From sequence record OM386661.1: DNA of 64,000 nucleotides. One strand, 5' to 3'. Shown here piece by piece: positions 2,967-3,402 of this stretch. Source of the DNA: Escherichia phage vB_EcoM_ESCO45. Numbering within the stretch: the stretch's first letter is position 1; every line of letters begins with the position of its first letter. The position numbers and the translations under genes were made by a program. The notes below the pieces were generated by a model that worked only from the letters and a program-made list of their open reading frames with translations, searched no databases and was not told the DNA's origin.

Positions 2967-3010
2967 AACACTTTATGAGATATCTAGTTAAGATGATAAA
3001 CAACGGTCTG

Positions 3011-3160
3011 GTAATTATCTTTGTAGATAAGTTATTAAGCTTACCTGTGAGTATGCGACCACAAAGGGTGAAAGGGTAAATTCTAGATTTAAACCCAAAA
3101 AGTCACATCGCTACAGACCTTAAGCAAGTCTGGGTAGCTTATCTACAAAGATAATTTAAT
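3011..3160 (+). ncRNA. candidate structured RNA bounded by a 19-bp perfect inverted repeat
   Basis: AATTATCTTTGTAGATAAG (3014-3032) pairs perfectly with its reverse complement at 3138-3156, enclosing about 105 nt; no ORF; inside a co-oriented tRNA operon. Confidence 0.35.
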
Positions 3161-3402
3161 GGAAGTGTAGCAGAATGGTGATGTGACCACTTTATAGTAC
3201 CCTTAGTTTTCGTTGCGTAGCGTCTATTTTGCAAATTTAAAATAAATGCAAACGACAATGTTTTTCTGGCAGTAGCTTGATAGGCTAAACACCAGTGAGG
3301 TCTTCCAATCCCTCATCAAAGAATTTGGCGTACTCGCCCACGGTATGATTAATAAGGTGGGCATCTTTAAGGGCTTTCTAAGAGAGTCTTTAAAGATAAT
3401 TA

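Follow-up and report, generated by a model that had tools for sequence, protein, structure and literature searches.

What occupies the gap that opens just past tRNA-Tyr in the tRNA cluster of Escherichia phage vB_EcoM_ESCO45? The gap is a segment of 436 bp, positions 2967-3402 of a stretch of 64,000 nucleotides (nt) from sequence record OM386661.1 (the window), and an earlier, sequence-only reading had pictured it as a structured region, free of open reading frames (ORFs) and of tRNA genes, in which a 19-bp perfect inverted repeat and a GCCCAC/GTGGGC hairpin might belong to co-transcribed stable RNAs or, for the repeat, to a miniature inverted-repeat element. Much of that description stands: no ORF of 60 or more amino acids overlaps the segment (the longest have 34, 39 and 46 residues), the repeat is present with its perfect core at 3014-3032 and 3138-3156, the hairpin is present with a loop of 15 nt, and the Rfam scan that had been recommended yields no family at gathering score in the segment. 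What escaped that reading is that the 3' half is a tag template like that of transfer-messenger RNA (tmRNA), complete with pseudoknots, and that the segment is a mosaic bearing deletion scars. Our best overall explanation, to which we give a probability of roughly 0.6, is that of a mosaic holding a repeat-closed structured RNA and, 3' to it, a tmRNA-like tag template.

The source phage belongs to the Felix O1-like myoviruses of Felixounavirus, and shares 98.5% identity with Escherichia phage vB_EcoM_ESCO50 across 2.5 kb. Its plus-strand tRNA cluster (2364-6577) comprises 18 tRNAs according to ARAGORN; a promoter scan places two strong sigma-70 promoters for the cluster at 2218 and 2308, and no terminator was found inside it in the scan of the window. 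The main comparison genome was that of phage radambza (locus L001), supplemented by other Felixounavirus loci from IMG/VR.

The tmRNA-like RNA: frame, structure and distribution

The first lead was a pair of sub-threshold Rfam matches, to tmRNA (16 bits, 3212-3401) and to permuted tmRNA (22 bits, 3147-3280), centred on UAAAUGCAAACGA. The tag frame in question, ANDNVFLAVA-stop (Table 1), has no start codon, and an in-frame TAG stands 10 codons upstream. Distant blastn comparisons reveal a block of ~125 nt in unrelated phages; we read this module in the Klebsiella siphovirus P5026, the Kuttervirus Maynard, the schitovirus UTK0002 and the Kolesnikvirus Hena2 (an Erwinia phage), and a pattern scan of IMG/VR gave 115 stretches that carry it. 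Across the module loci there are 15 variants of the tag (29 distinct 33-nt reading frames), every one of them exactly 10 codons plus a stop, and they follow the pattern A-N-(D/E)-x-x-(F/V/Y/L)-L-(A/M)-(V/A)-A; the E. coli ssrA tag is ANDENYALAA. Changes in codons 1, 2, 3 and 10 are limited to the third position (GCA AAC GAC becoming GCT AAT GAT, for instance), and TAA, TAG and TGA all occur as stop codons across the copies. Ahead of the resume codon, every true module copy that was counted has U(-5)A(-4), save two (these read GACAAAT), within upstream 7-mers as diverse as GATAAAT, AATAAAT, AGTAAAT, CATAAAT, AATAATC and AATAACT. In E. coli tmRNA, the frame-setting upstream sequence is said, from the work of Miller et al. 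in 2008, to be U85 A86. Moreover, the sole similarity of the module to E. coli ssrA, AAAATA...GCAAACGAC, falls at the resume site. Two conventional frames over the same block were considered and rejected: the open stretches of a minus-strand ORF of 46 residues (3224-3364) change frame and sequence among homologues, and Kuttervirus has TCG in place of the ATG of a plus-strand frame (MQTTMFFWQ), which is thereby lost.

The structure was tested on 37 representatives (alignment A1), and comprises a hairpin that contains the stop codon, followed by two H-type pseudoknots, A and B (Table 1). For the 22 tested pairs, 96% of the alignment cells are paired and nine pairs show double changes; the tested helices are 86-100% paired, as against 31-45% for controls slid along the alignment, and none of 500 shuffles reaches the observed values. 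In pseudoknot A, the loop CCNN is matched by a downstream NNGG in the versions CCAA/TTGG, CCAG/CTGG and CCGA/TCGG, the loop-downstream pairs switching between AU and GC in 17/37 and 11/37 sequences. The loop helix of pseudoknot B is 100% paired, CGYRYU with GNURUG, and exhibits CG, UA and GC types at two positions, and its hairpin stem occurs in at least eight different complementary versions among the homologues. At the 5' end, GTTTTCG is near-universal (35/37 aligned representatives). The 3' terminal hairpin is lineage-specific, with another long hairpin in its place in L081 and L082. A pairing of 3011-3027 with 3387-3403, tried as a helix that would close the whole region, is not kept in the L082 lineage and was discarded. 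Selection on the tmRNA-like RNA thus looks both structural and coding, to judge from these alignments, and we hold with good confidence that the module is a selected tmRNA-type tag template.

The module is found in 749 of 50,697 phage records, among them Felix O1, Kuttervirus and other Ackermannviridae (Vi1-like), T5-like, T1-like/Webervirus, Schitoviridae (N4-like) and Sashavirus phages and P1/P7. It is also present in 338 of 5,426 complete E. coli genomes (6%), in prophages and P1-like plasmids, at 97 chromosomal places and 246 on plasmids. A pattern scan of bacterial contigs, taking one genome per species (185,579 species genomes), gave only two true matches; both are apparently phage-derived, and a bacterial origin of the module was rejected. 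In P7 (locus L133, 1499-1680), the module, with the tag ANDDLMMAAA, lies between the C1-controlled ban operator and tRNA-Asn/Thr, and in one lambdoid prophage it lies between the gene for the Q antiterminator and that for the holin, past the late promoter and its terminator. In both P1 (64937-65004) and P7, a terminator-like hairpin precedes it within the leader of the C1-repressed ban/tRNA operon, and it is unannotated in the record. In lambdoid and T1-like loci (L009, L013, L031, L116 and L134) and in P7, it stands within a non-coding array of hairpin cassettes of ~0.6-0.9 kb, whose arms share the core GGTAAGAGCA / TGCTCTTTCC and several of which enclose tRNA-like inserts with a T-arm; a conserved tRNA-like element, TGTGGTG-AAT-GCGCAGGCTGATGCGC ... 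CCGGC-CACCACA, closes the arrays that were read in lambdoid and T1-like loci, that of P7 having been read only in part.

Among the matches listed, the annotation at the module is blank or is an overlapping hypothetical-protein call, and never an RNA gene. Genome reports for module-bearing genera state 'no tmRNA', and a 2014 survey of phage ssrA genes recorded only mycobacteriophages and Bacillus phage G, none of the phages being enterobacterial (PMC4131195). In the literature searched, which did not extend to the P1 genome paper, neither a tmRNA nor a tmRNA-like RNA is described from Felixounavirus, Kuttervirus or P1. Both tmRNA and phage tmRNAs were already known; what is new is a widespread, unannotated tmRNA-like RNA without a tRNA-like domain, overlooked in textbook phages such as P1/P7 and Felix O1 and in that same 6% of complete E. 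coli genomes.

Possible modes of action

From the conservation, covariation, coding signature and distribution that are observed, we infer how the RNA might be processed, how its tag might be translated and whence a tRNA-like function might come. With bacterial tmRNA (RF00023) and the two-piece tmRNAs (RF01849-RF01851 and RF04321), the module shares a start-less frame beginning GCA AAC GA, the A/U-rich leader with U(-5)A(-4), an ssrA-type degron, a stop codon within a hairpin and H-type pseudoknots past the frame. It differs in its 5' domain, in having two downstream pseudoknots where tmRNA has three, in being phage-borne and not beside smpB and, above all, in that the same RNA has no acceptor stem, T-arm, CCA or G3.U70. 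Phage-encoded tmRNAs are on record from mycobacteriophages Bxz1 and Catera and from Bacillus phage G, and the RNA of mycobacteriophage DS6A amounts to little beyond the tRNA-like domain (Hudson and Williams 2014, PMC4131195). The module is akin to these as a phage-borne derivative of a trans-translation RNA and, as with that of DS6A, it is one half of tmRNA alone; however, whereas the known examples are complete or, in DS6A, the tRNA-like half, the module keeps the opposite half. Since tmRNA is defined by the union of its tRNA-like and mRNA-like parts, an mRNA-like half on its own either challenges the current view of template delivery or represents a new class of tmRNA mimic.

Read-through from the two operon promoters (2218 and 2308) would yield the tmRNA-like RNA of this phage as part of the operon transcript, and an RNase P cut at 3402/3403 would trim its 3' end. 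Stalled ribosomes would then resume at GCA and append the phage tag from this template, for which a tRNA-like partner, or host tmRNA-SmpB, would be needed in trans. To our knowledge, resuming at GCA is the only known way of using such a start-less frame, and we put the chance that the module acts through trans-translation at a little under even. The more specific proposal, that many unrelated enterobacterial phages, from Felix O1-, Vi1-, T5-, T1- and N4-like ones to P1/P7 and lambdoid prophages, carry a free-standing tag template which is loaded in trans via host tmRNA-SmpB or another tRNA-like RNA, is tentative, and the odds are against it. If true, the phage would dictate the tag, and hence the fate, of rescued proteins, and this would be the first natural split of the messenger and transfer functions of trans-translation between RNAs without a shared acceptor stem.

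Several observations weigh against a working tag template. No tRNA-like domain attached to the module was found in any family, and ARAGORN, run on the window and 12 related loci, detects no tmRNA. None of the Rfam tmRNA models reaches its threshold across the module loci (best scores of 16-39 bits, versus 47-84 required); the best sub-threshold scores go to the permuted families, with a maximum of 39 bits at a T5-like locus. No acceptor strand precedes GTTTTCG; indeed, in radambza, Hena2 and P5026 the module's own promoter abuts GTTTTCG and, therefore, there is no room for one. A tblastn search with an approximate query, which is a weak test, found no SmpB-like gene in the window, and none lies beside the module in three other phages. 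Furthermore, we know of no mechanism that delivers an untethered tag template to a stalled ribosome. The tRNA-like gene immediately downstream (3403-3484), when considered as the missing domain, proved to be no constant partner, neither its adjacency nor its co-occurrence with the module being conserved. On the structural side, the 5' pseudoknot is only tentatively defined: in its majority form GUUUU:GAAAC and CUUUG:CAAAG are possible, with UTK0002 compensating by UUAUG:CAUAA in a part of the alignment that is poor, and the form in Ounavirinae differs from that in the other families. The stem of pseudoknot A was fixed by the search pattern, such that its invariance in most sequences is partly ascertainment; outside the pattern it covaries (TAGGG/CCCTA in Hena2, ACGGGG/CCCCGT in P7). 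Lastly, part of the conservation of codons 7-10 could be structural, since some helices double as codons.

Other ways of supplying the tRNA-like function were tried and rejected. The arrays of lambdoid and T1-like phages might have folded globally like a tmRNA, with the GGTAAGAGCA/TGCTCTTTCC arms as acceptor stem and P2, but in L013 the arms covary as local hairpins. For a permuted tmRNA precursor, G-CCA follows a hairpin upstream of the Kuttervirus module, but no T-arm precedes it, and the other families have no CCA. An anticodon mimic, in which an upstream UUUGC would pair with the resume GCAAA, fails in UTK0002 and in Kuttervirus (GCUAA). Whole-sequence duplex energies did not tell whether the module pairs with E. 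coli tmRNA or the tRNA-like RNA, and conserved complementarity was not seen. The large tRNA-like RNAs that Hena2, L012 and Maynard have by the module could not be aligned with one another. Those of Hena2 (L005, 1293-1451) and L012 (~+150 to +305 after the module) are ~150-160 nt long and possess a T-arm and CCA; their acceptor pairs are GGGTGAT/ATCACTC or GGGTGAT/GTCACTC, and the Hena2 RNA begins GGGUGAUUCUG, like the 5' end of E. coli tmRNA. Near the module, T-arms are confined to tRNA-like units that are self-contained, stand apart from it and vary with the phage family. The module is followed at 10-70 nt, in most families, by either a tRNA or a tRNA-like cassette with a T-arm; we read these downstream units as processing signals, because they differ from family to family.

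The main rival to the template reading is that the module is a decoy, a tmRNA mimic that sequesters SmpB, S1, RNase R or a tmRNA-cutting toxin or defence nuclease, with the outcome that host trans-translation is damped or protected during infection. The missing tRNA-like domain, absent in cis from every family, argues for this. Additionally, the 5' GUUUUCG resembles UUCGAC of the D-loop analogue in tmRNA (T5-like loci read GUUUUCGACG), loops such as GAUUAAUAA are invariant, as those of a binding surface might be, the module is placed like an accessory 'moron' gene in many types of phage, and there is a mirror case, in which a phage RNA has little beyond the tRNA-like domain and a similar molecule inhibits tmRNA (PMC4131195). 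The coding signature, on the other hand, argues against a decoy, which would have no need for exactly 10 codons, for conservation at the amino-acid level with variation at third positions, for a hydrophobic sixth residue or for the interchange of three stop codons; moreover, the central three codons are hypervariable yet degron-like in chemistry. On this balance, we consider a decoy improbable.

Less probable again is a split tmRNA, in which the module and the D-armless tRNA-like RNA of 3403-3484, charged with alanine, would act together non-covalently or as an unprocessed transcript. The two genes are ~40 nt apart in the window and in many Felixounaviruses, G3.U70 is kept in four of five lineages of the tRNA-like RNA, where pairs 1:72 and 2:71 covary, a mini tRNA-like element with a T-arm and CCA lies ~45 nt past the Kuttervirus module, and some tRNA or T-arm cassette follows the module in most families. 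However, the same position holds a canonical tRNA-Arg(UCU) in L081 and a canonical tRNA-Leu in Hena2, and in Riker, 121Q, EC.P2 and Seu621 no module lies within 600 nt of the tRNA-like gene. Their family spreads also differ: the tRNA-like gene occurs in 262 records, as opposed to 749 for the module (the record lists were not cross-checked), and mainly in Felixounavirus, T5-like Klebsiella, rV5/phi92-type, Mydovirus and 121Q-type giant phages, whereas the module is also found in P1/P7, lambdoid, T1-like and Schitoviridae phages. Finally, EC.P2 has G3-C70, the CUUCUAA loop with its covarying stem resembles a real Arg(UCU) anticodon arm, and neither a duplex test nor inspection revealed conserved complementarity between the two RNAs.

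The mosaic segment and its repeat-closed RNA

The tag template accounts for the 3' half of the segment, and the 436 bp as a whole are very probably a mosaic of several elements and not one element (Table 1), because a base-by-base comparison with radambza shows deletions and junction microhomology, and L081, L082 and L088 agree. Set beside radambza and the IMG/VR Felixounavirus loci, the window has two deletions relative to most relatives. With the first, which begins ~25 nt past tRNA-Tyr, an HNH endonuclease gene and tRNA-Asp were lost, as was the body of a Y-RNA-like element, which appears to be that of a YrlA-like Y RNA. The second, with its junction at a shared GATG, has removed the 3' part of tRNA-Lys, tRNA-Met, tRNA-Ile and the -35 box of a promoter. 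The absence of tRNAs from the segment, as originally described, is borne out by ARAGORN, which finds none, but it needs amending in that the comparison with radambza exposes the 5' half of tRNA-Lys(UUU). The promoter is intact in radambza (TTGACA-17-TATAGT, 11/12 matches) and ends ~7 nt before AGTTTTCG; at 3184-3204 in the window, the scan found no promoter. The sequence-only reading had also singled out a motif, ACGGTCTGGTAAT, placing it just upstream of a structured element each time. It does exist in two copies, with the second starting at 3003 (the first being at 2711) and not at ~2998; it is no signal ahead of such elements, and constitutes the 3' strand of Y-RNA-like bulged stems. Over the wider interval 2441-3210, the window lacks tRNA-Glu, tRNA-Asp, tRNA-Lys, a second tRNA-Met, tRNA-Ile and the HNH endonuclease gene relative to radambza. 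These genes are present in most Felixounaviruses, the ESCO50/ESCO56 series shares the losses (only ESCO56 was checked across the stretch), and isolates differ by many insertions and deletions in the tRNA region, a hot spot for such changes.

Table 1. Coordinates and strand of the features in and around the segment (positions of the window)
Feature	Position	Strand	Remarks
Intact Y-RNA-like spacer units	2487-2559 and 2655-2719		Shorter than the radambza unit
Remnant of Y-RNA-like bulged stem, 3' strand AAACAACGGTCTGGTA	2998-3013	+	5' strand and enclosed permuted tRNA-like domain deleted here
Repeat-closed structured RNA ('IR RNA'; putative)	3013-3156	+	Closing stem of 22-23 bp, multi-branch core of ~100 nt
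Truncated tRNA-Lys(UUU), 5' half GGAAGTGTAGCAGAATGGTGATG	3161-3183	+	Equals the first 23 nt of radambza tRNA-Lys (L001 2212-2286)
Decapitated sigma-70 promoter, spacer and -10 TATAGT (3193-3198)	3184-3204	+	-35 TTGACA deleted
tmRNA-like RNA	3205-3402	+	Tag frame, stop hairpin, two pseudoknots, 3' hairpin
5' domain: GTTTTCG (3206-3212), candidate PK1-equivalent hairpin/pseudoknot, A/U-rich AAAATAAAT	3205-3247	+	Structure tentative
Tag frame ANDNVFLAVA-stop	3248-3280	+	GCA AAC GAC AAT GTT TTT CTG GCA GTA GCT TGA
tmRNA helix 5-like hairpin CTGG...CCAG, stop codon in apical part	3266-3295	+	Pair 88:111 changes from GC to AU in 12/37
Pseudoknot A: TGAGG (3296-3300)/CCTCA (3311-3315); CCAA (3305-3308)/TTGG (3325-3328)	3296-3328	+	100% paired
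Pseudoknot B: CGTACT (3329-3334)/loop GGTATG (3342-3347); stem GCCCAC (3336-3341)/GTGGGC (3357-3362)	3329-3362	+	Conserved loop GATTAATAA
3' terminal hairpin (3363-3379, 3381-3397) and AATTA leader	3363-3402	+	Ends at predicted RNase P site 3402/3403
D-armless tRNA-like gene	3403-3484	+	Segment boundary, outside the module; Rfam tRNA 33.4 bits

The full arms of the inverted repeat extend over 3013-3034 and 3135-3156; they are 22 nt long, 95% complementary and 100 nt apart, and some 1e-4 such repeats would be expected by chance in 64 kb of this base composition. The region 3005-3165 folds with an energy of -48.2 kcal/mol (z = -4.2), which none of 200 shuffles equals, and the core enclosed by the arms consists of an inner hairpin, CAGAC/GTCTG, and a hairpin presenting the palindrome-containing TTCTAGA at its apex. 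The element is 95-99% conserved among Felixounavirus loci, and lies directly 5' of tRNA-Lys in all relatives where that tRNA is intact. A divergent lineage (L059, L081, L082 and L105) has altered arms and a very different interior; nonetheless, it keeps the overall length (153-157 nt), the closing stem, the inner hairpin (CAGAC/GTCTG becoming CAAACC/GGTTTG) and a hairpin with an apical GATTCTAGATT. The consensus fold of both lineages has 34 pairs, six of which are kept by changes on both sides, each such change counting as about one event, as the covariation rests on these two lineages.

The evidence favours a genus-specific structured RNA of ~145 nt, closed by the 19-bp repeat. That co-transcribed stable RNAs might be encoded here, as had been suggested, is upheld in that both the repeat-closed element and the GCCCAC region have helices that are conserved in related genomes through compensatory changes, on the strand of the tRNAs and with no terminator between; their stability is a prediction from sequence. 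An RNase P cut at the 5' end of the next tRNA would generate the 3' end of the repeat-closed RNA, and RNase III could cleave the stem of 22-23 bp in the manner of rRNA-operon stalks. Such RNase III processing stalks are known from rRNA operons and from T7 early RNA, and the likeness is that a duplex of at least 20 bp, formed from distant flanks, surrounds a structured RNA within a polycistronic stable-RNA transcript; the difference is that the RNA enclosed here is only ~100 nt, and cleavage is proposed by analogy. The T4 species 1 and 2 RNAs (rnaC and rnaD) are small, stable non-tRNA RNAs that are transcribed together with phage tRNAs and released from the tRNA cluster by tRNA-processing enzymes. 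They resemble the present case in being non-tRNA RNAs within a phage tRNA operon, and differ in that one of the RNAs here has a tmRNA-type tag template.

An alternative for the repeat-closed RNA is that it is a Y RNA, the partner of a Ro60-like protein encoded by the phage. Directly upstream of the tRNA cluster, the plus-strand ORF 784-2199 (471 residues) comprises DUF2828 and DUF7788, and its PHROG match is number 850 ('RNA-binding protein'); its model (mean predicted local distance difference test, pLDDT, of 88.6) has a Ro60 fold, with a TROVE ring and a vWA domain, and its top 11 matches in the PDB are all Ro60/TROVE proteins (E ~1e-8, TM up to 0.65). Its orthologue in Felixounavirus Bas63, gp130, has been described as Ro60-like in structure and as countering ppl defence, and it was guessed that some of the phage's 'tRNAs' are Y RNAs (bioRxiv 10.1101/2024.10.10.617714). 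The ORF is predicted to fold as Ro60, is on the same strand and is ~0.8 kb away; moreover, the repeat-closed RNA has a long end-to-end stem and a large internal region (~100 nt), as in Y RNAs, and GGUCUGG, which is near to the vertebrate Ro-contact motif GGUCCGA, stands immediately 5' of the stem. Against this, neither GNCGAAN0-1G, the bacterial motif, nor GGUCCGA occurs within 2200-4700, and GGTCTGG is found at 2553, 2713 and 3005, the last copy being outside the repeat-closed stem. The duplex of the stem is perfect, whereas the Ro-binding helix is bulged; the RNA has no YrlA tRNA-like domain and, in its interior, no T-arm consensus, and its ~145 nt exceed the 80-130 nt stated for Y RNAs (PMC4201824). 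Rfam scans (E<=10) gave no Y_RNA or YrlA match within 3013-3156; the YrlA matches in the window overlap true tRNAs only, with 20 bits versus a threshold of 69. Better candidates are also close by, namely bulged CAGAAGACC/GGUCUGG stems, one of which, in radambza, encloses a permuted tRNA-like domain. As the repeat-closed RNA, judged on sequence and predicted fold, departs from Y RNAs in most of these respects, we regard this assignment as doubtful.

The remaining alternative, in which the repeat is mobile DNA (a miniature element or a homing-endonuclease cassette) and the segment has no function as RNA, would suit a tRNA region that is a recombination hot spot, where HNH genes and indels vary between isolates and the window itself bears two deletions, but we give it hardly any credence and favour a structured RNA, because the element has no match in the 5,426 complete E. 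coli genomes, is confined to Felixounavirus at blastn sensitivity, where it is a single copy in the window at one fixed locus with no evident target-site duplication, and undergoes compensatory changes, the arms diverging between lineages yet remaining complementary and the internal hairpins covarying too.

Candidate Y RNAs and neighbouring tRNA-like genes

The two spacer units upstream of the segment have the form CAGAAGACC(R)(W)TTACAGCAA ... YGGTCTGGT, in which the ends pair as end-to-end helices with a 3-nt bulge opposite a 1-nt bulge (CAGA-AGACC / GGUCU-G-G). A third unit is intact in radambza (L001 ~1927-2062) and deleted in the window: CAGAAGACCGTT pairs with AACGGTCTGG, and together they enclose, in this order, a T-arm, an acceptor 3' strand, a loop, an acceptor 5' strand and a D-arm, which is a permuted tRNA-like domain with the order seen in YrlA. 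The Rfam YrlA model does not match the radambza unit. The resemblance to Y RNAs and YrlA (Chen et al. 2014, PMC4201824) lies in the Ro60-fold protein upstream, the bulged end-to-end stems of the spacers and the permuted tRNA-like domain of radambza; the differences are the lack of an Rfam YrlA match and of the published Ro-binding motifs and, for the repeat-closed RNA, its perfect stem and want of a tRNA-like domain. The two spacer units and the deleted unit are, on their sequences, good candidates for Y RNAs of the Ro60-like protein, and their coordinates are provided here. An operon with a Ro60-like protein and Y-RNA-like stems looks like a toolkit for RNA quality control and repair in the conflict between phage and host.

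The tRNA-like gene that bounds the segment on its 3' side was missed by ARAGORN, and has C1-G72, G2-C71, G3.U70, A73, an encoded CCA and an anticodon-type loop, CUUCUAA. This loop (UCU = Arg) and an extra region of 22 nt are invariant, whereas the acceptor and anticodon-type stems covary among homologues, which are found in T5-like Klebsiella, 121Q, phi92-like and Mydovirus phages and are 86-88% identical. Candidate roles are those of a tRNA-Arg that resists nucleases or acts as a decoy, or of an alanine-accepting mimic. A second non-canonical tRNA-like element follows at 3629-3713 (plus strand), ATGGGAC...GGGGTTCAACTCCTCC GTCCCAT G CCA, with a perfect 7-bp acceptor stem, a T-arm and CCA; it is not called by ARAGORN, and Rfam gives only a tRNA-Sec match of 17.6 bits. 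Further along, between tRNA-Ser and tRNA-Leu, another non-tRNA gap (3814-4068) harbours the longest inverted repeat of the cluster, with arms of 26 nt at 3978-4003 and 4042-4067 that are 85% complementary and flank a loop of 38 nt.

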